NCBI GenBank assembly: GCA_963674745.2
Contig: CAXXDV010000003.1
Location: forward strand, 2,176,001 to 2,240,000
Direction of reading: 5' to 3'
Origin: Desulfosudaceae bacterium
Lineage (GTDB): Bacteria; Desulfobacterota; Desulfobacteria; Desulfobacterales; Desulfosudaceae
Length of the DNA stretch: 64,000 nt
The position numbers and the translations under genes were made by a program. The first letter of the stretch is position 1, and every line of letters starts with the position of its first letter. The notes under the pieces were generated by a model. It had not been told where the DNA came from. It saw only the letters and a list, made by a program, of their open reading frames with translations, and did no database searches. Positions 1,334-52,513 of this stretch are shown here, piece by piece.

Positions 1334-4300
1334 TCAAAAGCGTTTGCCGCCGTTGCCCCTGAATCCGTTTCGTCTTGGTTTTCTCTTTTGGCCCCACTGC
1401 TCCGCGCCGGGTAACAACTGGCAACCGGCACGAACCGATTTATAGCCGAGCAGGGCCTCGACCCGGTCCGACAGGACCGTGCCCGGCGACAACTTCAGGG
1501 TTTCAGGCAGCGCAATCACTGTTTCCTGCTTTCCGGCAGATACCAGATGCAGAAATCCCTTACAGGTCCCCGCGTTTTCGTCAAAAATGGTTTTCAGTTC
1601 CGACAGCATTTCCCTGGTGGTAATTTCGGTATCAATCGTGCAGTGCACACTGGGCTGCCAGGCTTCACTCGCTTTTTCAATGGGCACAATACGTTCGGCC
1701 TGGAGCGTAACGGCCGACTCGGACTTTTCCAGGTTCCCTTCCACGAAAACCGGTGCGTCTTCAACCAGCAAATCTGCCACCAGCTTGAAAAGGGTGGGAA
1801 AAACAATCACCCGCAACGGGCCATAAATATCCTCAATAGAGATGTCGGCCATCAACAGGTCTTTTTTGGTCCGCTTGCGATTCACCGTGGTAATGGTGCC
1901 GCCGATGATCACATGGGCTTTGTCTTTCATCTCCCGGATGCCGACCGAATCGGCATTGGCGTATCTGGCCAGCTGATCCCTGTAATTGGAAAGCGGGTGC
2001 CCGGTCACATAAAAGCCCAGGGCTTCTTTTTCAAAAGTAAGTCGTTGTTTTTCAGACCATTCCGGGATATCCGGGAGAACCGGCGCGTTAATGGTTGTCT
2101 GGGTTTCTTCCAGATCAAAAAACGTCATCTGGGCATCCGCGCGTTCACGCTGGATTGTCTGACCGTGGGACAGGGCATCCTCGGCAGCCGCCATCATCGG
2201 TGCCCGTTCCGCACCGGTTGAATCAAAGGCGCCGCACTTGATCAGGCTTTCCACCACTTTTTTATTTACCTTGGCCAGGCTGACACGTTCACAAAAATCA
2301 AACAGTGAAAGATAGCGCCCATTATTCTCCCGTTCTTCGACCAGCACTTCGATAGCGGCTTCACCCACATTCTTGACCGCCAGCAGACCGAAACGGATAC
2401 GGCCGTCGATAACGGTAAACCGTTTCTCGCTTTCATTGATATCCGGCGGAAGAATCTCAATCCCGGCGGTACGGCACTCGGCAATAAACTTGACCACGTC
2501 ATCCGGATGGGCCATGGCACTGGTCAACAGGGCGGCCATGAATTCCACCGGAAAATGCGCCTTTAAGTAAGCTGTCTGGTAGGCGATCAGGGCGTATGCG
2601 GCGCTGTGAGACTTGTTAAACCCGTACCCCCCGAAGTATTCCATCTGCCCGTATATATCCCGGGCGATATTCTCACTGATGCCGTTCTTGACCGCGCCGG
2701 ACACAAAAATATTGCAGTGCTCGGCCATCTTTTCCATATTTTTCTTGCCCATGGCCTTGCGGAGGTCATCGGCCGAACCCATGCTGTAGCCGCCCAGCGA
2801 CTGGGCGATCTTCATCACCTGTTCCTGGTACAGGATCACACCGTAGGTTTCTTTCAGAATCGGTCCCAACTCAGGCGCGAGATATTCAACCTTTTTACGT
2901 CCGTGTTTTCTTTCAATAAAATCTTCAATCATACCGCTGCCCAGCGGGCCCGGCCGATACAACGCCACCAGGGCGACGACATCCGAGAAAACGGCCGGTT
3001 TCATCTTGACCAGGATTTCCTTCATGCCGGAACTTTCAAGCTGGAATACACCGGTGGTATCCCCCCGGGAAAGCAACTGATAGGTCAATTCATCATCCAG
3101 TTTCAGACGGGACATATCAGGCGCATCCTGGCCCTGCCCCGATATCAGGGTAAGGGCGTCCTGAATCACCGTGAGATTGCGCAACCCCAGCAGGTCCAGC
3201 TTGACCAGTCCGATGCTTTCAACGCACTTCATATCAAACTGGGTGGACACCTCCCCTTCTTTCACTGAATACAGCGGCAGGTAAGTCGACAACGGTTTGT
3301 CTCCGATCACCACCCCGGCCGCATGGGTCGAAGCGTGCCGCGGCAGCCCTTCCAAGGCTTGACCGGCTTTCATCAACTCACCGAATTCGGATTTGGATGC
3401 GATCATGTCCTTGAGCGCGGGTTCCTTTTTCATGGCATCTTCAAGGTCGTCGCTGTCAGGGGGTATCAACTTGGCAATGGCGTCGACTTCATAAAGCGGA
3501 ATATCCAGCACCCGTCCCACATCCCGGATGGCAGCCCGGCTTTTCATGGAACCGAAGGTAATAATATGGGCCACAAACTCCTCGCCCCGTATTTTTCCAC
3601 CAGGTACTTATAAACGCGATCCCGGCCGTTGATGCAGATGTCCACGTCAATATCCGGCATGCTCTTGCGTTCGGGGTTGAGAAACCGTTCAAACAACAGC
3701 CCATGCTCGATGGGATCAAGGTCGGTGATTTTCAGACAGTATGACACCAGGCTGCCTGCGGCCGACCCGCGGCCGGGACCGATGGGAATGCCATTGTTTT
3801 TGGCAAATTCGATAAAATCCGATACGATCATGAAATATCCCGGAAACTCCATATTTTTAATAACGGATATCTCATATATCAACCGCTCTTTATAAACCTG
3901 CTCGTCAGCCCCGGGATTATTGACCTGGATGCTCTTTTTCCTTTGTTCAAAACCGGCCCATACTTTTTCTTCAAAATAATCTTCGATTGATTTGTTTTCA
4001 GGGGTCTCAAAGCGTGGAAAATGGAGGGTTTTAAAATCAAGCTCGACATTGCATCGCCGTGCGATTTCTACCGTATTGTCGGCCGCCTGCGGAAAACTTT
4101 CCAGAAAAGCCCGCATTTCGTGGCCGGGCTTGAAATTAAGCTGATTGGTCTCAAACTTCATGCGATCGGTGTCATAAATGGTTTTCCCGGTCTGCAGGCA
4201 TAAAAACAATTCATGCATGCCGCTGTCCTCAGGATCCAGATAATGACAGTCATTGGTGCCCACCAGGGGTATTGAAATCCTCTGGCTCATGTCCCTTAAG

Positions 4301-16740: not shown

Positions 16741-17496
16741 TCAGATGGTGCCGATCGTGTCTTTACTAACCCAACCCACCTTATCCTTTCCGAACCGGAT
16801 ACGGTAAAAATCATTTCTTTGCTGCTCGATGGTCACCCGGCTTCCGGCGTGCAGCACAAACAATTCCGTAGACGGGTCTGAAAGCCCCGATTTGGCGGAT
16901 ATGGACTCGGACAAAACAACGCCCTGGCGGCTATTCTGATCAAAATAGAAATTGCCGGAAGCCGTCAGGGCAAAAAGAAGGAAAAATAACAGGGCACCAT
17001 AACGAACAAATGCCGGCACATTTAATGACAGGTGTTTTTTGACAAACATCACGAGACAGAAGATCAGGCCGAATGCTGCCGCCAGAAAGATCACCGTCTT
17101 TCGACCCAGCCAGTAGCGCCAGAAAAAAAGCATCTGCGGCAGTGAAACCAGGTCCGGTGCCTTATCTTTCACCCGGGTGCGGGCATATTCCAGATTAAAC
17201 CGCAAATCCGGGTCATTGGGCATCAGGCGGAACGCTTTTTCATACCACAAAACAGCCCGGCCGATATCCCCTGCCTTAAAACAGGCATTGGCAATGTTAT
17301 AGTACAGCTTGCCGTTGACAATGCCCTCTTGTGCGATGGAAAGAAAACCATCGGCCGCGGCCTGATAATGCCCCTGCTCATAATCTTTTACGGCGTCCAG
17401 AAACACGCGCGCCCGCTCCTGGGCCAAAGCCGTATACGGCAGAAGCATAACGGTCAACAGCAGAAAAATCGTTACCATCCTGATGGGCTTATTCAT
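16741..17496 (-). CDS. batE: BatE-like TPR + SH3 protein
   Basis: Signal peptide, YYNIANACFKAGDIGRAVLWYEKA TPR, TM pair, C-terminal SH3-like LHAG...VGWV; operon position. Confidence 0.8.
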   Translation of the reverse strand: MNKPIRMVTIFLLLTVMLLPYTALAQERARVFLDAVKDYEQGHYQAAADGFLSIAQEGIVNGKLYYNIANACFKAGDIGRAVLWYEKAFRLMPNDPDLRFNLEYARTRVKDKAPDLVSLPQMLFFWRYWLGRKTVIFLAAAFGLIFCLVMFVKKHLSLNVPAFVRYGALLFFLLFALTASGNFYFDQNSRQGVVLSESISAKSGLSDPSTELFVLHAGSRVTIEQQRNDFYRIRFGKDKVGWVSKDTIGTI

Positions 17497-38333: not shown

Positions 38334-40643
38334 TCAAAAGCCCGGGCCCTCATCAACCCGTGAGATATTCAGGTCAATCCGCTTGAGCATGTTTTTGAAT
38401 TTCGCATTATCCGGTTCGTATGCCATGGCTCTGCGAATAAAAGCCAGAGACCGTTCCGGATTGTCCAGCCATAACATCAAATCCGCGGCCCGATAGTACG
38501 CCTCACCATCGGGCAGACCGATTGTAAGGGCCTGCTGCATCAGTTTCATTGTCATACGCCGATCTCCCGCAGACAGCCATTTTTCGGCCCTGTTCATCGT
38601 CTGAATGGCATAGTCAATGCGTTCGGTTACGGTCCGAACGTGTGTATCGTTAAACCAGCCATCCGACGGTCCTGCAGGCTCCTTGAACAGCACGGGATCA
38701 TAAACGGGAAAATAAGGCACGATATATCCGGCGCAGGCCGCTTTTTCCTTGTCTGAGTCCAGGACCTGAAAAATCTGATAATACCTGTTCCGGTACACCA
38801 GCCTCAGCCGCCGGAAACTGTCCGGCGCAAAGTGCAGCCGGTAGGTCAGGTTGTTCCGGGGTACTTTAGACAGCCCCGCCAGATAACGTTTACCGTCAGG
38901 GTCGGCCTTTAAGAGGTTCCGGATGGGATAAAGATAATAATCGGTCTCCAGATCATCAAGCATTCGGTAAAGGGCATCTTCATCCTGGCCGAAAAGGGTC
39001 AGCAATATTTTCCGGTGCTTTTCCCTGATATCTTCGGCTTCCATCTTGGGATGCTGATTAATGGCCCGTCCGGTATAGGCCAAAATCGAGGGGCTGTTCT
39101 CTATATTACTTAAAAATACGGCCGTATCAGGGGTATGATGCCTTATCCAGTCCAGCATGTGCTTCTCATCTCCGGCATAAACCGCCAGACGCGGTCGTGA
39201 ATTATCGGCGCCAAGTTGTCTGGCCGTTTTCGCCAGATATGTGTTGTCCCACAACACCGCTTCCCGAACCTGAAAAATCAGGCACGCGGCCAGCATGATA
39301 CCCGATAGCCGGTTTTGATTAAAATAAACAGCCCGGTCCGGGGCAGCCCCTGTTTTTGTCCTGTCGGAGAGGAAAAGAAAGGCAACCGCCGTTCCCAGAA
39401 AAAAGGCGCTGAAGATAATCAGCCGCTGCGCCATGATGTTTGCCCCCAGAAACATGACGGCCAGAAAAATGACCATGAGCTCATCAAAACGGGCTTGACG
39501 CCGTTTGGTTTTAATAAAGCAGGCAAATGCCATCAGGGCCAGCGGCAGCAGCAGGCCGAAACGATAAATCAGAAAAAAAAACGGCGGGCTATTAAACGGA
39601 CCGTTCCAGAGAATGCGCCCTTCAAAGGGTAACATCCCCGGATTGTCGGGCTTGACCAGGAGGTTGGACAATTTGTATTTAAACAGCGCCCAGACATGGC
39701 CATAAACGGAATTTTCGGTTCCCAGAGAAAAGATCAGAAGGATGAGAACAACACCGGACGCCAGCAAAAACAGGCGAGAAAAAAAATTCAGGCCGATTTT
39801 CGTATCAATGAACAATACGATTACCACCAGAACGCCGGTCAGCACGGCCGGTGAAAAAAGCAGCGCGCTGGTTCGCATGACCGGTGACACCACACCGGCC
39901 GCCGCGACAAACACCAGGACCACAACCGCCGTGTTAAATTGATGCCGTTTGCCGCCGGTAAAAAGAAAGGCCCAGGCCATGGCGGCCCAGAACATCAACA
40001 GATAAAAGCGGGTAAAATGCCAGCAGACCAGGGCGGCGGTCAGGCAGACACCGGACAAGGCGGCCGAGACCATTGGATATGGCCGGCCCCGCAGGGCATA
40101 CAGGCAGGCGGCAAAAGACAGTGCCATCAACGGAAAAGCCGTGGCCTCGAGTTCATAAAACTGCACCCGCCCGAATGCCGCACCGGAAAAGGCATACAGG
40201 GCGGAAATATACAGGGCCGGCCAGGACCGGCCGCCAAGCGCCCGTACACACAAAAACACCGCCGGAACCGTCAGGCAGGAAAAAAAAGCGATAAAATAAA
40301 CCAGAAACGTGTACAGGGAAACATTTGGGAAAAAACCGGAAAACAGGCGGAAGGACAGGCCATGCAGATATTCCTGAAACAGCGTCAGCTCCCGGAAAGG
40401 GGTTATCCCTTCCGGCCATTGCGGTTTTTTATCAAACAGAGGGATCGGTTCGTCATCGGCCACCATCCGGGTATGCCGGAATTGAAACGCCTCTTCGGTA
40501 TAAAATGACCCGATATCCGCATCAATGTCATAATATGACAGTTCTTTGAACCGTTCCGCCCGATGAAACGCGGCACCGGTGATGATAACCGCCAAACACA
40601 GCCAAACAAAAAATGGCCGGTATTTTTCCTGGGGTATATTCAT
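38334..40643 (-). CDS. DPY19-like GT-C glycosyltransferase (C-mannosyltransferase homologue) with C-terminal TPR
   Basis: SFYTEE after TM1, D..PQWP loop, E..AFP, WHFTRF, HVW, DWIRHHT...AVF, GRAINQHPKME. These match DPY19 motif order as recalled. No STT3 WWDxG. Confidence 0.7.
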   Translation of the reverse strand: MNIPQEKYRPFFVWLCLAVIITGAAFHRAERFKELSYYDIDADIGSFYTEEAFQFRHTRMVADDEPIPLFDKKPQWPEGITPFRELTLFQEYLHGLSFRLFSGFFPNVSLYTFLVYFIAFFSCLTVPAVFLCVRALGGRSWPALYISALYAFSGAAFGRVQFYELEATAFPLMALSFAACLYALRGRPYPMVSAALSGVCLTAALVCWHFTRFYLLMFWAAMAWAFLFTGGKRHQFNTAVVVLVFVAAAGVVSPVMRTSALLFSPAVLTGVLVVIVLFIDTKIGLNFFSRLFLLASGVVLILLIFSLGTENSVYGHVWALFKYKLSNLLVKPDNPGMLPFEGRILWNGPFNSPPFFFLIYRFGLLLPLALMAFACFIKTKRRQARFDELMVIFLAVMFLGANIMAQRLIIFSAFFLGTAVAFLFLSDRTKTGAAPDRAVYFNQNRLSGIMLAACLIFQVREAVLWDNTYLAKTARQLGADNSRPRLAVYAGDEKHMLDWIRHHTPDTAVFLSNIENSPSILAYTGRAINQHPKMEAEDIREKHRKILLTLFGQDEDALYRMLDDLETDYYLYPIRNLLKADPDGKRYLAGLSKVPRNNLTYRLHFAPDSFRRLRLVYRNRYYQIFQVLDSDKEKAACAGYIVPYFPVYDPVLFKEPAGPSDGWFNDTHVRTVTERIDYAIQTMNRAEKWLSAGDRRMTMKLMQQALTIGLPDGEAYYRAADLMLWLDNPERSLAFIRRAMAYEPDNAKFKNMLKRIDLNISRVDEGPGF

Positions 40644-40659
40644 AAAATATAAATTCAGC

Positions 40660-42210
40660 CTATTGCGTCTCAGGGACGGCTTGACCCGCCCCCCCCCGGT
40701 TGTCCGGCGGCCGGGTCAGCACCTTTTGTTTCAGGTACAGATTAACCAGGTTGTTTTGTGCCGGCGTAAAACCGGGTGACAGCGCTAAAGCCGCTTTAAA
40801 ATGATTTTCCGCCCCCGCCCGGTCGCCCTTAGCTGCCAGAACCAGGCCCAGGTTGTTGTGAGCACCGGGTGAATCGGGCTTGATGGTAACCGCTTTTCTG
40901 AAATATCTTTCGGCCAGGTCCATGCGCGACTGCTTGCGCCAGGCATTTCCCAACCCGATAGCGGCCAGAAAATTCTGCGGATTCAATGACAGGGCCCGGG
41001 AAAACAGGGTCACACTGTTTCTGTAGTCGGCAACATGGAAATAAGCGGTTGTCGCAAAAAAAGCGACCAGCGTAAGGGCTGTCACCGTCATGACGCTTCT
41101 GCCCCCCGGTGAAACGACCCTTCTTGCCGGAACGATCCAGACCAGGGCGGACATCAGTCCCATCAGCGGTATATACATGTAGTGATCGGCCCGGGCCGGC
41201 CAGGGCCCGGATCTGACCACCCCGAAGGAAGGGATTAAAAATACCAGGAACCAGATCCATCCTAAAAAAACCATCGGCCGGCGATGACGATACCGGATGG
41301 CCGCCACCGTTAACAGCAGGATAAGAGTGCCGGAGACAACCGGCTGCCAGAGGGGAATGGACTCGGGGAAAGGGTAATAAACGGACAGTTGAAAGGGGCA
41401 TAAAACCTGGATCAAATAAATGCTAAACGAAACCAGAGCGTTGGCTGCCAGCATCCCGAATGTCATGACACCGTCGGACACCACCGGGCTGCCCCCCTGC
41501 CTTGCGGCCAGCACAGCCAGCAAACGGAGTATGGACAGCATAATGAACGGCAACAGGGTCATCATTTTTTGGCGGGCATTGGCGTCTAGGCATACGGGCA
41601 CGGGCGGGCTGTTGTCCTGAGCGTTAACCAGAAAAAAAAGGATAACCGGAACCATTACCGCCGTTGGTTTGGCCAGCAGCGCCAGGACAAACAGCACCAG
41701 GCTGAGCCCATACCCGCTTTTTCTCCGAGCCGTCAAGTAGCGCCTGAAGGCCAGCAGGGTAGCAATGATCAGCAGGGCGCACAGAAGGTTGGAGCGTTCC
41801 GCCACCCAGGCCACCGAATCCACGCCCAGGGGATGAACGGCAAAAAAGCCGGCCGCCAGCCCCGGCCGCCAGAACGCGCCGGTCAGTTGTACCAGCAGAG
41901 CGAAAAAAGACAACGTCACCAGGGCGTGAACAGCAACGCTGGTCAGGTGATGACGGCCGGCATTAAAGCCGGCCCAGGTCACATCGGCCATGTGGGAGAT
42001 TAAAGACAGGGGATAAAAGAAGACATTCTCCCGCCAGGCGGATGAGACGGCCCACTTTAAACCTTGCCGGGTTAAGCCCTGCCGGACATGAATATTTTCA
42101 GTCACCAGTTGGGGATCATCAAATCCCACAAATTCGAATTGCCGGGTCTGAAAATAAACCACCGCCACCAGCATCGCCAGGCAGGCGCTCATCAACAGGT
42201 ATCGCGTCAT
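40660..42210 (-). CDS. TMTC-like GT-C membrane protein with short TPR tail
   Basis: FVGFDD..LV.EN, HPL.VDSVAWVAER, LLAKP, ADHYMYIP, 2-3 TPRs (AHNNLG). Confidence 0.8.
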   Translation of the reverse strand: MTRYLLMSACLAMLVAVVYFQTRQFEFVGFDDPQLVTENIHVRQGLTRQGLKWAVSSAWRENVFFYPLSLISHMADVTWAGFNAGRHHLTSVAVHALVTLSFFALLVQLTGAFWRPGLAAGFFAVHPLGVDSVAWVAERSNLLCALLIIATLLAFRRYLTARRKSGYGLSLVLFVLALLAKPTAVMVPVILFFLVNAQDNSPPVPVCLDANARQKMMTLLPFIMLSILRLLAVLAARQGGSPVVSDGVMTFGMLAANALVSFSIYLIQVLCPFQLSVYYPFPESIPLWQPVVSGTLILLLTVAAIRYRHRRPMVFLGWIWFLVFLIPSFGVVRSGPWPARADHYMYIPLMGLMSALVWIVPARRVVSPGGRSVMTVTALTLVAFFATTAYFHVADYRNSVTLFSRALSLNPQNFLAAIGLGNAWRKQSRMDLAERYFRKAVTIKPDSPGAHNNLGLVLAAKGDRAGAENHFKAALALSPGFTPAQNNLVNLYLKQKVLTRPPDNRGGAGQAVPETQ

Positions 42211-42302
42211 GAAAAAAGGGTAACAGATCTTGTTAAGAAGGAACAGGATAAAATTCAGGCGCTTTTCATATCAGGAAGGGCTCATGTGCTTGAGGCCGAC
42301 GG

Positions 42303-44012
42303 CTATCGCCAGGTAGAACCGGCACGGTTAATATCCGTGCCGAAATTAGACTGGGGGTTAGCGGCAGTACCGTTAAACGGCGTGGCGATGTTCATGCTCC
42401 GGGTCCTGCAGGAGGCCGGAGAAGCACTAAACGTCAATCGCGCGTTACTGCCAGCGGTGCCATTATCGCCATAATCGAGATTGGGGATGATCCATTCTTC
42501 ACTGGCAGAGGATACTTCATCCACCAGGCTGCGGTTGCCGCAAAGCACGATTTTCGTGTAGGGAACGGATATATCATTTATAGCCCAGCCACCGGTATGA
42601 TCCGCCCCAGCAACGTCGGCGAAGCCGTCCGCATCCCTGTCCGGATCGGCCTCCCGGAAGCGGCCGACACGCAGCTCACCGAGAATATATTCTTTCCTTG
42701 ACGGGGTCGTGCGCACGGCTCCTGAGGTCGATGTTCCCATGGACGATACCCCGCTGTCCGGATAATAAACCGTCCGGGAATAATGGCCGCAGAGATAAGC
42801 GATCAGATAGGTATCATTACCGTTTCTGCCATCGCAGTTTCTGCTAGACGTGGCCACTTCAATACGCATGGGGCGGGTGGGGCTGGTATAGCCGATCTGA
42901 TTTTGAATGTAATTTTGGGTATTCATGTTAAAGTTACCGCCTCCGGCGCTGGCGGCGTACTGTCCGATATAATTGGCGCGGGTATAGCTTCGTTGATGAT
43001 GAACACCCTGAACAAATTCTCCCGAGATATTCCAGTCCGTGAGAAAAGCATCCGGATCGGTGGTATCGGTATATGTATAATAATACGTGGAATTAAAAGA
43101 TTTCCAGTTGGGGTATGGCGTTGTCGAATCGCCTTTGTCGATGATGTCGCCGGCAAACATAACGCCGTTGGCCGTGGCCTCCTGGCCCTGTAAACCGAAA
43201 AAGCCCAGGGTACCGCCGCCGGGCCGCAACCCCAGCTCGCCCCCGATACCGGTATTGCCGCGGATAATATCTGAGGTATAAGGGTTATAAACAGCATTTC
43301 CGGCGGTGCGATGCCAGTTTAACCCATCGCCGTTCATGTCGGCATTGGAGTCAACAAAGGGACTGGCGCTGGCGGAGCCAACAAAAAAAAGGCGCTGAAA
43401 AGATGAAAGGGGTGAAATAATGGAGTACATGAATTTGTGTTTGTTCGGATCGACATATTTTTCCGCCCAGAAAAGCTCGCCCAATTTTAAACCAAACACA
43501 TCGTAGGCCGTATCGCCGGCCGTGCCGGGCACCACGAACTGACATAAATCCCAGTTCCAGAACATGGCGGTACTACCGTAACCTGTCATGGAAATAATAA
43601 CGGCATCCGTCGCAAGGCCGGTTAAAGCAGTTGCCTGGCTGCCGACATCTATGTCAAAACCCAGCCAGTTCACGTTAATCGGCGTGTTCTCATCTTCAAA
43701 ACTGCCGCAGAAGGCCATGGAATGGGCACCGGCATCATTAGTGCCTAAATTCAGATATTGGGCATTGCTGTCATCGGTAATCACAAACTTGGCATCCCAG
43801 GTCGTATCGGGGGTCAGGTCCAGCAGGAAATCATCGACCTGTAACAGGGTGGCGTCAAGGTCCGTGAAGTAAAGGTTGACGCCGCTCTGGCCCATTACAC
43901 TCCCCAGGTCCTCGTTGGACAGGGGCTTCATGGCGTCAGCCCGGTTAACGGTAACGGCAACCGTGAACACCATCATTCCCACCATGATAAGTCTTTTGAA
44001 TAAACCAGTCAT
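42303..44012 (-). CDS. Secreted DUF6160/FilA-like protein
   Basis: Signal peptide ending ADA, then MKPLSNEDLGSVMGQSG; Gly/Ser/Thr/Asp/Trp-rich beta-type body. Confidence 0.65.
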   Translation of the reverse strand: MTGLFKRLIMVGMMVFTVAVTVNRADAMKPLSNEDLGSVMGQSGVNLYFTDLDATLLQVDDFLLDLTPDTTWDAKFVITDDSNAQYLNLGTNDAGAHSMAFCGSFEDENTPINVNWLGFDIDVGSQATALTGLATDAVIISMTGYGSTAMFWNWDLCQFVVPGTAGDTAYDVFGLKLGELFWAEKYVDPNKHKFMYSIISPLSSFQRLFFVGSASASPFVDSNADMNGDGLNWHRTAGNAVYNPYTSDIIRGNTGIGGELGLRPGGGTLGFFGLQGQEATANGVMFAGDIIDKGDSTTPYPNWKSFNSTYYYTYTDTTDPDAFLTDWNISGEFVQGVHHQRSYTRANYIGQYAASAGGGNFNMNTQNYIQNQIGYTSPTRPMRIEVATSSRNCDGRNGNDTYLIAYLCGHYSRTVYYPDSGVSSMGTSTSGAVRTTPSRKEYILGELRVGRFREADPDRDADGFADVAGADHTGGWAINDISVPYTKIVLCGNRSLVDEVSSASEEWIIPNLDYGDNGTAGSNARLTFSASPASCRTRSMNIATPFNGTAANPQSNFGTDINRAGSTWR

Positions 44013-44046
44013 GCGATTATCCTGTTTTCGGCCATCAAAGCCGGCT

Positions 44047-45282
44047 TTAATCGACGCTATTCAACCGCCAGGTGATGAACTCGTTTTCAAAATAGTGGTC
44101 GGGATCCTGCTCCAGGGGCGGCCAGTTGCGGTATTCGTTTACGCCGGCAATAACGTTCCAGCCGGAAAACCGCCGGTCGGTAATATCGACCATCAAAAAA
44201 AAGCCATGGTTCTTGTCCTGGAAATTACCCACAATGTTGTTGATCGATGTACCGTCGCCTCCGGACTGGATCTGGTTCATGTTGGTGTTGAACCAGAACT
44301 GTCGAAACGACCCCTGACTGGAGGTATCGGGATTAAACTGAAAACTTGAAAGCGACCAGAATTGATCAAGAATGGGATCCCGCTGCAATTGAAAACACAC
44401 CATATTGGTCAGGTCCGTGGCCTCGGGGGACAGCTTGGACATTTCGGCGTTCATCCAGCCGCTGGAAACAAGTGGCCTGACCGAAGAGTAACCATAAAGG
44501 CAGTTGGAGCCGAGGGCAAACCGCCTCAGCAGCTGGTCACTTTCCCCCCAGTTACTGAACTCGGCCCGGAGCACAAGGCCGTATATCCGCATGGGGTACT
44601 CTTCGCTGAAACCCATTTTGAGATTTTCCCAGTTAATGTCCCATTGGGTTTCCGGATGGTCACTGCATTGGGTTGAACCGAAATAATTCCATGGGCGAGT
44701 GGCTGACAAATTAACATATTGACCCAGAGTGATCCGGTTGCCGGTGCGGGCAGAGGAACTATAACGATCATGGATCCTGTCTTCCCGGTTACTGTTTGTA
44801 GATTCATATGGGTTATCACCAGCTGAGCCACCATAAGTAGCTGATATCTCTTGATTACCTCTGGTGTTTGATCTGTTCTGGGGGCCATAGACCATGGTGT
44901 AATCGGAATCCATGGAAGCCATATCACCCAGTTCCGAGACGGTCCGGGGATAATTCCCCATCTTGAGGGCGCCGATTTCGCCATAATTTTCAAGGTAGAT
45001 ATCACTGGAAAAACGGACTACGGTAACACTCTCGCCCATACCGGTATTTACGGAATCGTAAAAATCGTCCTGGCTGATGGCCATTTCAAGGAGATGTCCG
45101 CCTTCAAGCTCGCCCAGCTCGTGGTTGGTCATGGCATTAAGACCGGCCGATACTGGTAGAGACGAAAAAATCATCATCAAAATACCCAGAAGCGCCAGCA
45201 AACCGGGCTGAACGCTGCAACGGGCACATACGACATGTTTCTTTTTTACTGCACGACCTTCGATCTGAACCCCCATATTCAA
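44047..45282 (-). CDS. Secreted protein with DUF6160-like N-terminal motif; start uncertain
   Basis: Signal peptide ending VSA, then GLNAMTNHELGELEGG; Asn/Ser/Trp-rich; WDINWENL. Confidence 0.6.
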   Translation of the reverse strand: MNMGVQIEGRAVKKKHVVCARCSVQPGLLALLGILMMIFSSLPVSAGLNAMTNHELGELEGGHLLEMAISQDDFYDSVNTGMGESVTVVRFSSDIYLENYGEIGALKMGNYPRTVSELGDMASMDSDYTMVYGPQNRSNTRGNQEISATYGGSAGDNPYESTNSNREDRIHDRYSSSARTGNRITLGQYVNLSATRPWNYFGSTQCSDHPETQWDINWENLKMGFSEEYPMRIYGLVLRAEFSNWGESDQLLRRFALGSNCLYGYSSVRPLVSSGWMNAEMSKLSPEATDLTNMVCFQLQRDPILDQFWSLSSFQFNPDTSSQGSFRQFWFNTNMNQIQSGGDGTSINNIVGNFQDKNHGFFLMVDITDRRFSGWNVIAGVNEYRNWPPLEQDPDHYFENEFITWRLNSVD

Positions 45283-45321
45283 CCGCCTGAAATTGTATCC
45301 GCAAACAGTGTTTACTAAAAG

Positions 45322-45349
45322 AATCTACCAGATATGGAACCAATGTCAA
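45322..45349 (-). promoter_or_regulatory. Sigma-70-type promoter for the secreted-protein/TMTC/DPY19 transcription unit
   Basis: TTGACA-16 nt-TAGATT with an extended -10 TG. Confidence 0.5.
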
Positions 45350-45396
45350 GTATAATTTAGCCGTCCATCAGAAATGTTGACAAGGAATATGATTCA

Positions 45397-45717
45397 GTGG
45401 TTATGTGATTATGTGGTTATGTGATTATGTGGTTTCAGGGCCATGAGCCTTGTTTACGATTCCGTTATTATTCTATTCATATTGCTCATCACATAGACAC
45501 AAACTCGTAAATATCTTAAATCATAAAATTTAGGAAAAAATTCTGGCTGCGAAACGAAGATGACAAGATCAAAGCGTCACGAATCTAATACCGTGCGCTA
45601 AACAACATTGAGATTTCAAGGGACGCGGCGCAACACTGACATGGGGCTTTTTGTGAAGCCATCAAGAGCACTAACGATAGCACCTAAACACTTAATCACA
45701 TAACCTCCTAATCACAT
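45397..45717. repeat. Octamer inverted arms (45397-45434; 45681-45717) enclosing unrelated DNA, including a degenerate MITE-like segment (~45543-45665)
   Basis: gtggttatgtgattatgtggttatgtgattat ... cacctaaacacttaatcacataacc; inner segment ends ggctttttgtgaagccatcaa. Confidence 0.65.
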
Positions 45718-45731
45718 TTGTTGTCCGAAAT

Positions 45732-47981
45732 ATGTCGCACTGGCTTCACAAACATACCGGGGCATTGATCAAGGTCCGCGATCCATGGCGGACCTTGCTG
45801 GTGCTGTCAGTGTTGGGGATGATATGTGTAACTGTTTACGGCAACACGTTAAACGCGCCGTTTATGTTTGACGATGTGACCAACATCACCAAAAATCCCC
45901 GGATTTACATCCAGGCGCTGACCTTGGATTCCCTATCAGATTTTCTCAAGGATGATACGCTGAACCGTCCCCTGGCATATTTTACCTTTGCCCTGGATTA
46001 TTACGTTCACCGTTTTGACGTCACCGGATATCACATCGTTAACTGGCTGATCCATCTTGCAAGCGGTCTGCTGGTCTATTTTCTGACACGTCAGACGCTG
46101 CGGTTAATGAACAAAAACATTCCGGGCGCCCCATTTCTGGCAGCAGCCCTATGGATGACCAATCCCGTGCATACCCAGTCGGTCACCTACATCGTTCAGC
46201 GGATGAACGCCTTGTCGGCCATGTTCTACCTCGCCTCCCTGGTGTTTTACATCCGGGCCCGGACCGGCCAATTGATGGGTAAACGTCCGAAAAAAAAGTC
46301 ATTTATCTTATTTTTCCTGAGCGCGGGAGCGGGCATCTGCTCGCTGGCGTCAAAACAGATTGCCGTCACCCTGCCGCTGGTCCTGTTTCTGTATGAGTGG
46401 TTTTTTATCCAGGACCTGCGCAAAACCTTTGTTAAAAAGCAAACGGCCTGGATATTAACCATCGTTGCGGGCATCACCCTTTTGGCACTGATTTTTTTGA
46501 AAGGCAACCCGGTCTCGGCCATCATGTCCGACTATGACAAGCAGCCCTTTACCATGGGCGAACGTCTGCTGACCCAGCCCCGGGTGATTGCTCAATATCT
46601 TTCATTACTGCTGCTGCCCTTGCCGGAGCGCTTGAGCCTCGAGCACTGGGTGCCCGTCTCGAGAACCCTGACAAGCCCCGCCACCACCTTGCCGGCCCTC
46701 GGCCTGTTGATGCTGATAACGCTCACAGCCGTTCTCAGAGCCAAAAAAAACCGCCTGTTCGCCTTTACCGTGTTCTGGTTCCTGATCACCCTGGCCGTGG
46801 AATCTTCTTTTATCGGCCTGGCCTTAATGTTTGAACACCGCACCTATCTGCCCTCGGTCTTTCTGTTCATCACCATCACCTGCGGCCTGCGGCAACATGT
46901 CCGGCCCGGCTGGCTGGCAACGGCAACAATGATCGTGCTGATCGCTGTCTCCGGGTTTTGGACCCGGCAGCGAAATGATGTCTGGGCCGATGAGGTCCGG
47001 TTCTGGCAGGACAACATCAAAAAATCGCCCAAAAGCATCCGGCCCTACAACAATCTGGGTGTCGCCCTGGCTGTAAATGGCCGTTATGAGGAAGGTATCG
47101 CCGCCTGCCTGCAATCCATCGCCCTGTCGTCGCCGGCGACCAACACCGCCAACGCCTACAACAACATCAGCAGGATGTATCAAAAACAGGGCGACAGCAC
47201 CAGGGCCATTGCCTACGGCAGGCGGGCCATCGAGATTGATCCGGGTCTGGGCGAGGCGCACCTGAACCTGGGTAAAGCGCTGCTGGCAGAGAACGATCTG
47301 GACGAAGCCGTCACCCACCTTGAAAAAGCGATTGAACTGGCACCCCTTTTGACACCGGCATACACCATACTGGCGCAGGCGTATTACAGCAAGGATGGTA
47401 ATGTGGACAACGCCATCAATATCTGCCGCCAGGCCCTTCTGACTGATCCCGAAAATGCGGCTGCTGAAGTTTTCATGGCCGGCCTGTTACAGCAATCAGG
47501 GAAACCGCAGCAGTCACTGGCACACCTGCAGCGCGTTCTTGACAAGCACCCGGTAAATCCGCAGGCCAATCTCTATGCCGGCATAGCGTTCAATATGATG
47601 GGAAAACCGGACCGGGCGATCGCCCATCTCCTCCGGGCCGCAAAGGCCATACCGGACAACGCCCGGATTGAAAATGAGCTGGCATCGGCCCTGACGGCCG
47701 TCAACCAGCAGGCCATGGTGCTTGCCGGTCAAGGGCAGTTCAAAAAAGCCGCCGGCATTCTGGAAACGCTTGAAGCGCTAATGCCGGGGTCACCGACCGT
47801 CTCTTACAACCTGGCCTGCCTCTATGCCCTGCAAAATCAGGTTGATCAGTCGGTCCGTCATCTGAAAAAAGCACTAAAAAAAGGATACGACGACTGGGAA
47901 ACCCTGCGGACGGACTCAGACCTGGAGACTATTCGGGGGACAGCGATCTATCAGGAACTGGTTTCGCCCCAGGAGAGATAA
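45732..47981 (+). CDS. TMTC-like GT-C + TPR protein, paralog 1
   Basis: PFMFDD..NI..NP, RPL, NPVHTQSVTYIVQR, ASKQ, FEHRTYLPS, multiple TPRs, YNLACLYAL..GY.DW C-terminal cap. Confidence 0.85.
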   Translation: MSHWLHKHTGALIKVRDPWRTLLVLSVLGMICVTVYGNTLNAPFMFDDVTNITKNPRIYIQALTLDSLSDFLKDDTLNRPLAYFTFALDYYVHRFDVTGYHIVNWLIHLASGLLVYFLTRQTLRLMNKNIPGAPFLAAALWMTNPVHTQSVTYIVQRMNALSAMFYLASLVFYIRARTGQLMGKRPKKKSFILFFLSAGAGICSLASKQIAVTLPLVLFLYEWFFIQDLRKTFVKKQTAWILTIVAGITLLALIFLKGNPVSAIMSDYDKQPFTMGERLLTQPRVIAQYLSLLLLPLPERLSLEHWVPVSRTLTSPATTLPALGLLMLITLTAVLRAKKNRLFAFTVFWFLITLAVESSFIGLALMFEHRTYLPSVFLFITITCGLRQHVRPGWLATATMIVLIAVSGFWTRQRNDVWADEVRFWQDNIKKSPKSIRPYNNLGVALAVNGRYEEGIAACLQSIALSSPATNTANAYNNISRMYQKQGDSTRAIAYGRRAIEIDPGLGEAHLNLGKALLAENDLDEAVTHLEKAIELAPLLTPAYTILAQAYYSKDGNVDNAINICRQALLTDPENAAAEVFMAGLLQQSGKPQQSLAHLQRVLDKHPVNPQANLYAGIAFNMMGKPDRAIAHLLRAAKAIPDNARIENELASALTAVNQQAMVLAGQGQFKKAAGILETLEALMPGSPTVSYNLACLYALQNQVDQSVRHLKKALKKGYDDWETLRTDSDLETIRGTAIYQELVSPQER

Positions 47982-47985
47982 ACGT

Positions 47986-50145
47986 ATGATTACCGTAAAT
48001 CATAATGAAGAATTAACCTTCCGCAAAACGGCCCTGGCTGTTTTTCTGCTGATCTACGCCATTGGCGCCCTGATTTACGGCCATTGTCTTTCAGCCCCGT
48101 TTTATTTCGATGACATGGAAAGCATCGTTGAAAACCCCCACGTTCGAATTACCCGGCCGGTCTCATCCGAAAAACTGGAAAAAATCGTGAAAGAGGAACC
48201 CGGCAGTCGCCTGCTGCCCATAATAACCTTTGGTCTCAACCACTATTTTGATCAATACCAGCCCGGCGGCTATCGCCTGGTCAACATGATCATTCATTTA
48301 ATAAACAGCTGGCTGGTTTTCTGTCTGGCATGGCAGACATTACGTCTATGCGGTAAGGCCCCTTTTTTCATTTCCCTGGCGTCAGGCCTGATCTGGCTGA
48401 CCATACCGGTACATACCCAGTCCGTTACCTACATCGTTCAACGCATGAACAGCCTGGCCGCCATGTTTTATCTGCTGGCCCTCTTATGCTATATTCAGGC
48501 CCGTCAGCACCGGCTTAATGGCACCGGGGTACGCGTTATACTATTCTGGTCCGGCGGATGCCTGCTGGCCGGTATCCTGGGATTGGCCTCCAAGGAAACA
48601 ACCGCCACCCTGCCCCTGTTTATTCTTCTGTATGACCGGTACTTCTTTTACGGCAGTAAGCGTTCCGGGCTGACAAAGAACTGGCGTATCCCGGCACTGG
48701 TGGTCTTACTGTTCGGTTTAATCGCCATTGTCTACCTTGGCTGCGACCCCGTGGAGAAACTTGCCGCCACCTATGCCGACAAGCCTTTTTCGCCGGTTCA
48801 GCGGCTTCTGACCGAACCCCTCGTTATTGTTTACTATCTTTCATTGCTGGCTTTTGCCCATCCGGACAGGCTCACCCTGGATTACGATTTTCCCCTTTCC
48901 AATGCAGTGACGGACCCCACCGTCAACCTGTTGGCGTATACCGCCCTGACGTTTCTGTTCATAATGATGTTTTACGCAACACGTAAAAACCGGTTGATAT
49001 CTTTTGCGCTTTTATGGTTTTTCGGCAATCTGCTCATCGAATCTTCGGTTGTCGGCCTGGCCCTGATTTTCGAACACCGGACCTATCTTCCCTCGATCTT
49101 CCCCGTTATTGCCCTGGTTGTTTACCTGACGGACCGTCTTTCTCCCCGCCCGCTGGCAATAGCCGTTATCAGCGCCATCATCATCTGCAACAGTTTCTGG
49201 ACATTTCAGCGCAACATTACCTGGCAGAACCGAACCGCTTTCTGGGAAGACGGGTGCAAGAAAGCCCCGATGCTGACCCGTCCTCATAATAATTTCGGAC
49301 TGGCACTGGCTAAAGCAGGCGACCAGGAAGCGGCAAAGGTTGAATATCAAAAAGCCATCGCCCTGAGCGGCGGAAAAAAAGCACCGCCTTATAACAATCT
49401 GGGAATGCTTTTATACCTTGCGGGGAATACGGACAATGCCATTGAGCATTTTTTAAAGGCCATAGAAACGGAACCGGATTTTGCCAAGGCATACATGAAC
49501 CTGGGCGTCATCAGGGGTGAACAAAAAAGCTACCGACAGGCCATCCGGTTGTTGGAAACGGCCATTGCGCTGCACCCCGACAATTCGGAAGCGCATAATG
49601 CCCTGGGAAAAATCTACTATGAGTCCGGACAGACGCATGACGCCATCCGACACTGTCAACTTGCGCTTAAGCTCGACCAGAGCAATGCCAATGCTGAGAA
49701 CAACCTGGGCGCTATTTTGCTGGGTACCGGCCGCGCTGAACAGGCCCTGCCGCATTTAACCCGGGCCATTTCCCTGTCACCCGAGGTCCCGGAAACCAAT
49801 ATCAATATCGGCCTTGCGTATAAGCAGCTGGGCAATCCGATCATGGCCGTTTTTCATCTTTTCCGAGCGGTTTACCTGGCGCCGGAATACGCGGCGGCCA
49901 GGGCCGAACTCGGGCTCTTCCTGCTGGATGAAGGCAAATACCAGGACGCACGAACGCATCTTGAAAAAGCGATAGCGCTTCAACCCGACCTTGTCAAGGC
50001 GCGTCTGGGACTGGCATCCGTTTTTGAAAACCAGAACCTGACGGATGAAGCGATCAGGCAATATCAAAAAATTATTGCCGACCATCCGGATATTGATATT
50101 GCGCATGAACGATTAAAAGCGCTGGAGAAGAAAACGGAAAACTGA
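47986..50145 (+). CDS. TMTC-like GT-C + TPR protein, paralog 2
   Basis: PFYFDD..SI.ENP, PVHTQSVTYIVQR, ASKE, FEHRTYLPS, about 8 TPRs. Confidence 0.85.
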   Translation: MITVNHNEELTFRKTALAVFLLIYAIGALIYGHCLSAPFYFDDMESIVENPHVRITRPVSSEKLEKIVKEEPGSRLLPIITFGLNHYFDQYQPGGYRLVNMIIHLINSWLVFCLAWQTLRLCGKAPFFISLASGLIWLTIPVHTQSVTYIVQRMNSLAAMFYLLALLCYIQARQHRLNGTGVRVILFWSGGCLLAGILGLASKETTATLPLFILLYDRYFFYGSKRSGLTKNWRIPALVVLLFGLIAIVYLGCDPVEKLAATYADKPFSPVQRLLTEPLVIVYYLSLLAFAHPDRLTLDYDFPLSNAVTDPTVNLLAYTALTFLFIMMFYATRKNRLISFALLWFFGNLLIESSVVGLALIFEHRTYLPSIFPVIALVVYLTDRLSPRPLAIAVISAIIICNSFWTFQRNITWQNRTAFWEDGCKKAPMLTRPHNNFGLALAKAGDQEAAKVEYQKAIALSGGKKAPPYNNLGMLLYLAGNTDNAIEHFLKAIETEPDFAKAYMNLGVIRGEQKSYRQAIRLLETAIALHPDNSEAHNALGKIYYESGQTHDAIRHCQLALKLDQSNANAENNLGAILLGTGRAEQALPHLTRAISLSPEVPETNINIGLAYKQLGNPIMAVFHLFRAVYLAPEYAAARAELGLFLLDEGKYQDARTHLEKAIALQPDLVKARLGLASVFENQNLTDEAIRQYQKIIADHPDIDIAHERLKALEKKTEN

Positions 50146-50222
50146 AGTGACAATTGATCGTCATCCCGGTTTTGCCGAAAAACCCTTTTTACATCTTTGC
50201 CGACTTCGACTAAAATAGCCGC

Positions 50223-52496
50223 ATGCTAAAATACTGTTGCTCTAAATCCGGGTATCTCTTTGCCGCAGCCATCCTCGCCGTTGTCGGCTGGTACCTGTAT
50301 GCCCCCGCTTTCCATGCGCCGTTCGTGTTTGACGATCTGCCCCAGATCATTGAAAACCCCCATATCCGAATAACCGGATATTCATCGGATATTCCGGCAC
50401 GTTTGATGAACTGCCGCAATCCCAACCGGTTTCTGGCCTATGCCACCTTTGCCCTGAACTATTATGTTCATCAATACGACGTAGCCGGATACCGTGTCGT
50501 CAACGTCGTTATCCATATCATTACGGCTTTCCTTGTTTTTCTGACCGCCAGACTGACCTTAGACCCGGATGGCCGCAAGCGGTCCGTGTTACTGCCGTTT
50601 CTGGCCGCCGCCCTGTGGATGGTCAACCCGGTCCACACCCAGTCGGTGACCTATATCGTTCAGCGCATGAACGCCATGGCCGCCATGTTTACCCTTCTGG
50701 CGCTGTGCTGCTTTGTCCGGGCAAGATTAATGCAGAGGTCCGGCAAACACGGTCTCAAGCCGATCCTGTTTTATGCCGGGGCCGGGGTTTCCGGCCTGTG
50801 CGGCCTGGCCGCCAAGGAAACCACCGCCATCCTGCCGGTCGTGATGATGCTTTACGAATGGTATTTTTTCCAGGACCTGAGCCGTAACTGGATGAAAAAA
50901 CAGCTGGCCCGGATAAGTATCGTACTGGTATTGCTGGTCATCATCAGCCTGGTGTACATGGGCGGACATCCCGTTGACAAGCTGACAGGCATATATGAAA
51001 GTCAGGACTTCACCCCGGGCCAGCGCCTGCTGACCGAGCCGCGGGTGGTCCTGTACTACCTGACCCTGCTTTTTTTCCCTCATCCGACCCGGCTCAACCT
51101 GGATTATAACTTCCCCCTGTCCCTGTCCCTGCTCAATCCGGCCACGACCCTGCCGGCCATCCTGGCCCTGCTGGGCCTGGTCGTTGCCGCCGCCTACACG
51201 GCCAAAAAGCACCGGCTGTGTTCATTTGCCATTGCCTGGTTTCTGGTTACCCTGGTCATTGAATCATCGTTTATCGGGCTGGCCCTTGTTTTTGAGCACC
51301 GCACCTACCTGCCATCCGTGTTCCCGGCCATAGCCGTCACCTGTTTTCTCGTCCGCCAGGTCAAACCGCTCCCGGTGGGCGTCATGATCGTTATCGCGGC
51401 CATTATTTTATGCGGTTACAACACCTACCAGCGAAACCGTGTCTGGGACAGCACCCTGGCTTTCTGGCAGGATTGCCGTGCCAAATTCCCCAACAAACCC
51501 CGTATCCTCAACAATCTGGGGATGGCATACAAAGAAATCAATAAAACCGTTGAAGCCCGCCGGGCATTCGAAGCTGCCCTCGCCAGTGATCCCGAATGGA
51601 TATATGCACTTAACAACCTGGGTACGATTGTGCTCGAAGAGGATAACCCCGAACAAGCCGCAGGATTTTTTGAAAAAGCAATTCTAATTGAACCGGGTTA
51701 TTACGAAGCCCATTATAATCTTGGATTGGCCCTGATGGAAATGAATCGGGTCGGACCGGCGATCCAGTCGTTTAAGAAGGCACTGGAATTCAACCCCTTT
51801 TACGAAAAAGCACACAACAATCTGGGAGCAGCCTTGATACAGCGACTTGACCTTGACCTGGCAATTGAGCATTTTCAGCGCACCCTTTCCCTGGATCCGT
51901 TCTTTAGCCAGGCATACAGCAATTTGGGCGTCGCTTTTTATAAAAAAGGCATGGTTGACAAGGCCATTGAGTGCTTCAACAAGACTCTGGATATCGACCC
52001 CTTTCATCTTGACGCTTATAACAATATGCGATGGGTAAAATCAAAATCAAAAAAATACCGGGATACCATTATCGGCCTCAAAAAACGCCTTGCCCGCGAT
52101 CCGGATAATCCCCGGTTGTGTTTCCGTCTTGCCGAAACCTATAACCGGGCCGGCATGACCGGACTCGCCCTGGAATACTATGAGAACGCCTTAGCCCTGC
52201 AACCGAATGCGATCGACGCCCTGCTCATCATGGGCGATTTCTACGCCGCCCATTATCGATACCAGCTGGCAGCCGATATTTATGAACGGCTGGCGGACCT
52301 GCGGCCGGAGTCCGCGAATGTGCATTATAATCTTGCATGCCTTTATGCGCTTCAAAACAAGCCGGAGAAAGCCGTAGCCGAACTGAAAGCGGCCGTTAAC
52401 AAGGGTTATGGCGACTGGGGGAAAATCGCCTCGGATAAAGATCTTGAAAATATCCATGACACAGCGTATTTTAAAAAAATTGTGAATAACCTTTAA
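50223..52496 (+). CDS. TMTC-like GT-C + TPR protein, paralog 3
   Basis: PFVFDD..QI.ENP, NPVHTQSVTYIVQR, AAKE, FEHRTYLPS, TPRs, YNLACLYAL..GY.DW cap. Confidence 0.85.
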   Translation: MLKYCCSKSGYLFAAAILAVVGWYLYAPAFHAPFVFDDLPQIIENPHIRITGYSSDIPARLMNCRNPNRFLAYATFALNYYVHQYDVAGYRVVNVVIHIITAFLVFLTARLTLDPDGRKRSVLLPFLAAALWMVNPVHTQSVTYIVQRMNAMAAMFTLLALCCFVRARLMQRSGKHGLKPILFYAGAGVSGLCGLAAKETTAILPVVMMLYEWYFFQDLSRNWMKKQLARISIVLVLLVIISLVYMGGHPVDKLTGIYESQDFTPGQRLLTEPRVVLYYLTLLFFPHPTRLNLDYNFPLSLSLLNPATTLPAILALLGLVVAAAYTAKKHRLCSFAIAWFLVTLVIESSFIGLALVFEHRTYLPSVFPAIAVTCFLVRQVKPLPVGVMIVIAAIILCGYNTYQRNRVWDSTLAFWQDCRAKFPNKPRILNNLGMAYKEINKTVEARRAFEAALASDPEWIYALNNLGTIVLEEDNPEQAAGFFEKAILIEPGYYEAHYNLGLALMEMNRVGPAIQSFKKALEFNPFYEKAHNNLGAALIQRLDLDLAIEHFQRTLSLDPFFSQAYSNLGVAFYKKGMVDKAIECFNKTLDIDPFHLDAYNNMRWVKSKSKKYRDTIIGLKKRLARDPDNPRLCFRLAETYNRAGMTGLALEYYENALALQPNAIDALLIMGDFYAAHYRYQLAADIYERLADLRPESANVHYNLACLYALQNKPEKAVAELKAAVNKGYGDWGKIASDKDLENIHDTAYFKKIVNNL

Positions 52497-52513
52497 CAGA
52501 TTCGGGGGTGCAA

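Follow-up and report, generated by a model that had tools for sequence, protein, structure and literature searches.

What kind of system is encoded where the genes of a DPY19-like and four TMTC-like membrane glycosyltransferases surround those of two secreted proteins in a bacterial genome, and on what would these enzymes act? The question is raised by positions 38334−52496 of a 64,000-nucleotide stretch (referred to as the window; G000:C3:2176001−2240000) in the genome of a Desulfosudaceae bacterium (G000, the genome under study; other G-numbers denote relatives and L-numbers denote fetched stretches). In a preliminary description of the window these genes were proposed to form a dedicated, "eukaryote-like" glycosylation system. 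On the basis of gene content, homology, conserved active-site residues and co-inheritance, we consider it moderately probable that the window holds the left part of a ~45−55-kb locus for a Fil-type surface fiber with an embedded glycosylation island, in which the Fil subunits would be glycosylated in a TfpW-like manner.

The minus-strand genes encode, in the direction of reading, a secreted 411-residue protein (44047−45282), a secreted 569-residue protein (42303−44012), a TMTC/TfpW-like enzyme of 516 residues (TMTC-A, 40660−42210) and the DPY19-like enzyme of 769 residues (38334−40643). They are separated by 34, 92 and 16 bp, a spacing which suggests a single transcription unit. Three additional TMTC/TfpW-like enzymes are encoded on the plus strand, B (749 residues, 45732−47981), C (719 residues, 47986−50145) and D (757 residues, 50223−52496), where a copy of D, 95% identical over the membrane domain, is found on contig C1. 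All seven open reading frames (ORFs) and their layout agree with the preliminary description.

The locus beyond the window

The boundaries originally drawn were too narrow, i.e., the locus continues ~20 kb beyond the window end and only about one-third of it had been seen. The array of TMTC-like genes picks up again 581 bp past the window end with four more members, and this region also encodes three FilA/DUF6160 proteins, a 369-residue leader-bearing protein, FilB, FilC, FilD and a beta-propeller protein. FilB is a C39 peptidase (NCBIfam E 1e-55), FilC a FapF-like pore bearing a SPOR domain (E 6.6e-55) and FilD a FadL-like barrel (E 7.3e-94), and two of the FilA proteins exceed the Pfam DUF6160 cut-off. 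The genes filA, filB, filC and filD lie together in one cluster (L001), which contains the sole filB match of G000. The sugar genes at 52.5−64 kb of the window are an insert in a run of seven same-strand TMTC-like genes. The same elements recur in relatives: the genes of both secreted proteins, six TMTC-like genes and filA−filD are contiguous in G207, and G129 has eleven TMTC-like genes, together with sugar genes, between a 411-type gene and filA.

The closest described systems are the putative pilus system Fil (FilA−D, NCBIfam NF050077-80) and the Fap amyloid export machinery (FapD, FapF), with which the locus shares FilA/DUF6160 subunits, a C39 peptidase, a FapF-like pore and a FadL-like barrel in identical order. 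It differs from these systems in its shorter FilA (~178 residues), additional large minor subunits, the embedded array of type C glycosyltransferases (GT-C) and scores below the NCBIfam cut-offs. The Fil filament is itself only putative in PMC3203104. No account of a glycosylated Fil fiber was found in the literature searched, which was thin on subscription papers and in which one paper mentions DUF6160, and no such locus was confirmed in two metagenome scans.

A structure model of FilA (L001:11426−11893) is all-beta, with a predicted local confidence (pLDDT) of 73.6 and a predicted template-modeling score (pTM) of 0.50. It has no clear structural counterpart (best Z 4.0; no Foldseek match at E ≤ 0.001). 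A likeness to "pilus-like-alpha", a filament known from environmental electron cryomicroscopy (PDB 9XFV), is weak (Foldseek rank 2, E 0.081; Z 3.3) and unconfirmed by sequence profiles; if real, that structure would possibly be the first of a Fil fiber. The small FilA-type subunits contain 12−22% Ser+Thr. FilC (L001:14143−16092) carries a long, repeat-bearing N-terminal extension and the SPOR domain ahead of its FapF-like barrel. In G111 (L071:12319−18894) and G158 (L073:12691−19356), proteins of ~2200 residues with Ig-like repeats, which are possible tip adhesins, are encoded between the minor subunits and filB.

The two secreted proteins

Both secreted proteins have a single N-terminal hydrophobic segment followed by a leader (LSNEDLGSVMGQ / MTNHELGELEGG) such as is found at the start of FilA/DUF6160 subunits. 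Their description as "DUF6160-like" is borne out for this leader only. The 569-residue protein, in which a signal peptide precedes the leader and 17% of residues are Ser or Thr, reaches 18.6 bits against Pfam DUF6160 (cut-off 27), and the 411-residue protein, for which the leader ends in GG and the true start is probably later than the annotated TTG, has no Pfam match. In profile−profile comparison with FilA the 569-residue family attains a probability of 94% over 28 columns and the 411-residue family 5.6%; language-model (Atlas) features of the 411-residue protein approach DUF6160-bearing clusters at 0.92−0.93, a weak signal.

The 411-residue family is found in 12 of the 13 genomes of the taxonomic family. 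Across the order it occurs in 17 of 201 genomes, all 17 of which fall within the 30 order genomes that harbor filB. Many distant 411-type matches also reside a few kb from filB. The gene order 411-type, 569-type, TMTC-A is repeated in G129, G202, G067, G205, G207, G204 and G209, while two members of another family, G150 and G019, display filA, a gene for a leader protein of 444−446 residues, a 411-type gene and two TMTC-like genes. We read the 411- and 569-residue proteins as probable minor Fil subunits, in line with the earlier suggestion that they are parts of a filament.

The 569-residue protein has a Trp near its C-terminus, and in all ten family orthologs compared a Trp is found among the five C-terminal residues, which is possibly an export or assembly signal.

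The TMTC/TfpW-like enzymes

G000 harbors 26 TMTC-like genes, of which eight reside in the island. Each of the four proteins in the window has a multi-pass N-terminal membrane domain followed by a tail of tetratricopeptide repeats (TPR) recognized by Pfam. The motifs that PMC7801869 lists for animal TMTCs, i.e., DD in EL1 (external loop 1), a Lys in EL3 and ERxxY in EL5, are retained among the paralogs: DD in 26/26, the EL3 Lys in 24/26, and in the ERxxY-like motif the acid and the Tyr in 25/26 each. These features bear out the TMTC-like label, and the proposal that the enzymes face the periplasm is supported. The Pfam DUF1736 family (PF08409) is matched by 0/15 members at E ≤ 0.1; by its Atlas features TMTC-A comes near a DUF1736 cluster (0.94, rank 21), Pfam PMT_2 is matched by one of 15 members, and the domain has no PDB match by sequence.

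Two kinds of relatives provide a frame for these enzymes. With animal TMTC1−4 they share the membrane domain with TPR and the DD, xRP, HP.H, K(E) and ERxxY-like motifs (PMC7801869); they differ from these proteins in the unmatched DUF1736, in SHKSYRP being reduced to xRP or xPL and in the absence of a cadherin-like substrate from the locus. The second relative is TfpW, the group IV pilin O-arabinosyltransferase of Pseudomonas aeruginosa. This protein of 646 residues has 11 transmembrane (TM) segments, a DDX motif and a periplasmic TPR region, is encoded behind pilA and O-glycosylates the pilin (bioRxiv 10.1101/2020.04.19.049825). The enzymes of the locus resemble it in having ~11 TM segments, a DD(X) motif within the first periplasmic loop and a periplasmic TPR C-terminus, in being encoded beside a filament subunit, and in a probable polyprenyl-phosphate donor; a UbiA protein of the window resembles the TfpW donor synthase. 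The differences are that eight paralogs rather than one are found at the locus, that the filament is of the Fil/DUF6160 type rather than a type IV pilus, and that the genes within the locus suggest an amino sugar. TfpW is a described bacterial precedent, an 11-TM GT-C+TPR enzyme acting on a filament subunit, and full-length prokaryotic TMTC homologues, one of them deltaproteobacterial, have appeared in print (PMC7801869). One G000 paralog also lies directly behind a type IV pilin gene; the TfpW-type arrangement is seen at L007:4373−13126, where the pilin gene is followed by a first TMTC-like gene, VKOR-DsbA, another TMTC-like gene, GT9 and a PMT_2 protein.

An alternative is that the GT-C enzymes of the locus act on lipids, lipopolysaccharide (LPS) or a polysaccharide, in the manner of ArnT- or Gtr-like proteins, rather than on proteins. 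Among solved structures, that of ArnT comes nearest to the TMTC N-domains (PMC7801869), three-component GT-C systems decorate O-antigens (PMC11127046) and the island holds many sugar-modifying genes. Nonetheless, we consider this explanation very unlikely in view of the TPR tails on all four TMTC-like proteins of the window and of the best structural matches of the 769-residue protein, all of which are protein-acceptor enzymes (Z 23−33, compared with 21 for ArnT).

A quick tree of the family, comprising 78 of 79 rows, divides the enzymes of the locus in two. TMTC-A belongs to a clade of eight rows (support 98), every one of which comes from a 411/569-type locus, i.e., TMTC-A is a one-to-one ortholog located directly behind the 569-type gene and co-inherited with both secreted proteins. 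Enzymes B, C and D and the four downstream TMTC-like genes fall in a clade of 33 rows (support 99) that, among the rows sampled, is confined to this taxonomic family. In a complex prediction, the TPR region of TMTC-A (residues 380−500) and the 569-residue protein scored 0.00, a value that is uninformative either way given the uncertain fold of the partner.

Association of TMTC-like and Fil genes

To what extent the pairing of TMTC-like and Fil genes extends beyond this locus was assessed from 22 Fil loci, i.e., 21 of 34 other filB matches, chosen for their longer contigs, together with G207. TMTC-like genes were found in 10 of the 22 fetched stretches, nine of them at most 6.6 kb and one 14.7 kb from filB. 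The pairing occurs in 5 of 11 families and, outside the taxonomic family of G000, in 6 of 18 loci; two further pairings, in G091 and G185, were identified by coordinates. As a background, the share of G000 that has a non-island paralog at a distance of at most 10 kb is 6%, and at most 20 kb, 11.5%. The binomial P is 0.006 at a background of 0.12 and 0.05 at 0.2, for a count made post hoc among kin that are not independent. Genes for B12 radical SAM proteins are also found beside the array in G150 and G005.

These data have to be weighed against the possibility that the array is a general glycosylation island for envelope proteins, with many periplasmic or surface targets, and that the products of the neighboring Fil genes are not the principal ones. 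Many of the 26 paralogs lie beside radical SAM, glycosyltransferase or sulfotransferase genes with no fiber gene, and the TMTC-like family is found in 146 of the 201 order genomes, compared with 30 for filB. A general island accounts less well for the single ortholog, TMTC-A, that tracks both secreted genes across a family, and for the adjacency to filB repeated in five families; we therefore regard it as possible but rather unlikely.

The proposal of a glycosylated Fil fiber faces several objections of its own. All NCBIfam Fil scores fall below their own cut-offs, and the family-level count carries the two limits given above. No TMTC-like gene was found in the fetched stretches of 12 of the 22 Fil loci, some on short or cut contigs; the fiber therefore does not require TMTC-like genes. 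Most of the 146 TMTC-bearing order genomes are without filB, 18 of the 26 TMTC-like genes of G000 lie outside the island, which also weakens the notion of a "dedicated" system, and five G000 members of the 33-row, island-type clade are scattered outside it. Finally, the likeness to TfpW stems from a published description of architecture rather than from a sequence alignment, and the strict TfpW motif YX6PFX7P is present in 0/26 paralogs, TMTC-A carrying YX6PFX6P.

The DPY19-like enzyme

The 769-residue protein consists of an STT3/DPY19-type membrane module, a periplasmic dome and a short TPR tail. Its DPY19-like label is confirmed by Pfam (Dpy19, 58.7 bits; cut-off 27.2). A structure model (pLDDT 93.7) finds CeDPY19 at Foldseek ranks 1−3 (E 2.5e-16), followed by STT3A (1.3e-14), and a profile that includes little of the TPR finds CeDPY19 at E 1.7e-20 and STT3 at best at 7.8e-18. 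Structural alignment with VIA-align results in a tie, with STT3B at Z 33.0 (root-mean-square deviation 3.3, 564 residues aligned) and CeDPY19 at Z 32.3 (3.0, 580 residues). The protein is thus, as judged from these comparisons, a GT-C of the DPY19/STT3 fold that is closest to DPY19 in sequence. With STT3/AglB/PglB it has in common the fold and the catalytic Arg and acid residues; it differs from these enzymes in the lower profile scores and in the absence of the WWDYG motif, where the SWWDYG of STT3A aligns onto an unrelated stretch of the profile.

Conservation was assessed in a search of 50%-identity clusters, which yielded 572 DPY19-like clusters at E ≤ 1e-10; residues were counted in the query and 127 of the best 150 clusters (n = 128), the 23 dropped being mostly partial or oddly long. 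With reference residues of CeDPY19 taken from PMC10154233, the conserved positions are R159 (R211 in CeDPY19; 120 of 128), E166 (E220; 123), W208 (W262; 127), R407 (R471; 121), E535 (E579; 124) and R540 (R584; 123). E50, which is Glu or Asp in 127/128, corresponds to E71 by an indirect mapping through D49 of STT3A, and the dome motif reads HPKME compared with HPHYE in DPY19. Overall, the likeness to DPY19 (CeDPY19, PDB 7ZLG/H/I; PF10034) comprises the fold, the dome motif and residues corresponding to R211, E220, W262, F264, R471, H575, P576, E579, R584 and, indirectly, E71. The differences are an identity of only ~15%, the added TPR tail, and substitutions in the acceptor site: K473 of the Trp(+3) pocket is replaced by I409, and the position of Y578, which stacks on Trp(0), is occupied by M534 (Leu in the protein of G129, Trp in that of G202; aromatic in 118/128). 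EL5 is unaligned to CeDPY19, with Y395 and F401 unmapped; W346 is invariant (128/128) and is a candidate for the residue that stacks on Trp(0). Dolichyl-phosphate mannose is an unlikely donor of this enzyme.

One proposal, compatible with the glycosylation of the Fil fiber, is that the enzyme C-glycosylates Trp residues of the 569-residue protein or FilA at a sequon other than WxxW. The equivalents of R211, E220, W262, R471, E579 and R584 (120−127 of 128), the EL1 acid (127/128) and a dome with HPxxE..R as in DPY19 rather than the WWDYG of STT3 favor C-linkage; R211, E220 and R471 are common to STT3 and therefore no mark of it. In the 569-residue family, the columns of W154, W182 and W476 hold Trp in 5/5 rows representing the two genera with the DPY19-like gene and in 0/9 others, a pattern which belongs to a single lineage, and so to one event, and is therefore a lead rather than a test. 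Against C-glycosylation stand the absence of a WxxW motif from both secreted proteins, the loss of K473, the Met at the position of Y578, a fold that ties STT3 with DPY19, the restriction of the Trp pattern to one clade and a C-terminal Trp/Tyr of FilA that varies independently of the gene. The one WxxC of the 569-residue protein, at position 154, has a Cys that is not conserved in orthologs. We consider C-glycosylation quite unlikely, and it is similarly doubtful that C-glycosylation of Trp in a Fil subunit by this enzyme (e.g., at W154, W182 or W476 of the 569-residue protein) is combined with O-glycosylation of that fiber by the TMTC-like array.

The C-terminal Trp of FilA was also tried as a marker of the DPY19-like gene and rejected, because the best-scoring FilA of G202, where the gene is present, ends in Tyr, and FilA of G204, where no gene was found, has Trp.

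If C-glycosylation were to occur, it would be the first of a bacterial protein, and the fiber would carry both O- and C-linked sugars. The passages searched in two reviews confine protein C-mannosylation to animals, apicomplexans and a virus, or are silent on bacterial enzymes, and no account of bacterial DPY19 homologues was found in the literature searched, where coverage of subscription papers is thin.

Distribution of the DPY19-like gene

A combination of DPY19 and TMTC enzymes conserved as a "eukaryote-like system" is not what the relatives display. A single-query search detected the DPY19-like gene in 2 of 201 order genomes, and a profile search, in which no more than three candidates per genome were scored, detected it in 3 of 301 class genomes, all of this taxonomic family. 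Within the family, 7 of 13 genomes have a member. The gene follows TMTC-A in G000, G129, G202 and G201, which represent two genera, and a 2.5-kb contig carries the copy of G208. A second TMTC-like gene is found instead at or near this slot in G067, G205, G209, G204 and G207. Among 33 distant DPY19-like loci (1.6−22 kb) from Elusimicrobiota, Eisenbacteria, Gemmatimonadota, Verrucomicrobiota and others, Fil genes accompany 0/33 and a TMTC-like gene 1/33. A conserved DPY19+TMTC+DUF6160 system across bacteria was rejected on the basis of slot use and these distant loci. The neighborhood survey proposed earlier thus supports the 411-type/569-type/TMTC-A synteny, which recurs in seven relatives, and places the DPY19-like gene outside the conserved core, where it is a local, lineage-specific add-on, probably gained in the slot by one lineage.

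A second, stand-alone clade of DPY19-like genes is represented in G000, G207 and G209. Its G000 member (L003:8840−10777, G000:C3:830837−832777) encodes 646 residues (Pfam 51.3 bits), has an Asp at the EL1 acid position and has no Fil or TMTC-like neighbor.

What is new here is a DPY19-like enzyme within a Fil+TMTC locus. At least 572 bacterial-type DPY19-like clusters have no candidate substrate, and the locus offers a short list of co-encoded secreted candidates as well as a natural comparison between relatives with and without the DPY19-like gene in the same slot.

Proposed mechanism

In the scheme considered most plausible, for which substrates, donor, leader cleavage and order of steps are proposals, FilA would pass through the inner membrane by Sec, as would the minor subunits of 411, 569 and 369 residues. 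GT2 enzymes would charge undecaprenyl phosphate with a sugar, probably an N-acetylated amino sugar and perhaps, via UbiA, also a pentose, and the sugar-lipid would be flipped to the periplasm. There, the TPR tails of the TMTC/TfpW-like enzymes may hold the unfolded subunits while sugars are transferred onto Ser/Thr, with some of the enzymes perhaps lengthening the glycan. The DPY19-like enzyme would most likely act on the same unfolded subunits. FilB (C39) would cut the Gly-Gln/Gly-Gly leader, and FilC/FilD would export the subunits. The system would operate in the manner of TfpW, but its filament is of another type and its paralogs are many; functional membership of the TfpW, TMTC or DPY19 families is not claimed.

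A very common, unstudied GT-C+TPR family would thereby be tied not only to type IV pili but also to a filament of a second type. Glycosylation of the pilin reportedly shields P. aeruginosa from phages (10.1101/150227), and protection from phages could, by analogy, be a cause of the fast turnover of TMTC paralogs.

Donor sugar genes and flanking regions

The TMTC array is followed at 52508−56384 (plus strand) by a probable donor pathway, recognized by Pfam: an NAD-dependent epimerase/dehydratase, a DegT aminotransferase, a PglD-like acetyltransferase, a GT2 and a DUF2304 protein. The remainder of the insert (56381−63990) encodes a B12 radical SAM protein, a sulfotransferase, two LPG_synthase_TM proteins, which we take to be flippases, an Alg13/Alg14-like pair and two GT2 enzymes. 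Together, the epimerase/dehydratase, DegT, PglD-like, GT2, DUF2304 and LPG_synthase_TM genes suggest that undecaprenyl phosphate carries an N-acetylated amino sugar, and nothing singles out mannose. The epimerase, DegT and GT2 genes are in the same order in G129. Over 56001−62000 the G+C content is 40−43%, compared with ~51% elsewhere in the window; because of this drop, a recent swap of the sugar-gene cassette is suggested.

The left flank (28150−38193) encodes UbiA, a radical SAM/SPASM protein, a GT-C, FKBP, two B12 radical SAM proteins, GDSL and GT2, and is largely syntenic in G129. The UbiA protein (28150−29211) resembles decaprenyl-phosphate phosphoribosyltransferase at 186 bits, below the cut-off of 234. 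An FAD oxidase at C3:852712, away from the locus, is presumably DprE1-like. Because of these two proteins, a pentose donor is possible (compare PMC11127046). The GT-C of this flank (30417−31979, minus strand) is without TPR, matches PMT at E 8.9e-7 and the NCBIfam LA_3751 family at E 2.7e-15, and is retained near the locus in G129, G202, G204 and G207.

The divergent intergenic region between the 411-residue protein and TMTC-B (45283−45731, 449 bp) contains promoter-like sites, and the promoter and terminator scans gave consensus matches only. Farther from the locus, a Bat-type operon (MoxR, DUF58, two VWA proteins, BatD and TPR-SH3) is found at 16741−24770 on the minus strand. The dnaE gene (1334−4890, minus strand) is broken into ORFs of 448 and 746 residues, compared with a single ORF of 1183 residues in G129. 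Contigs from both public runs, which may stem from the source sample, have one additional base at 3584 within the dnaE region, and the split is therefore probably an assembly error.

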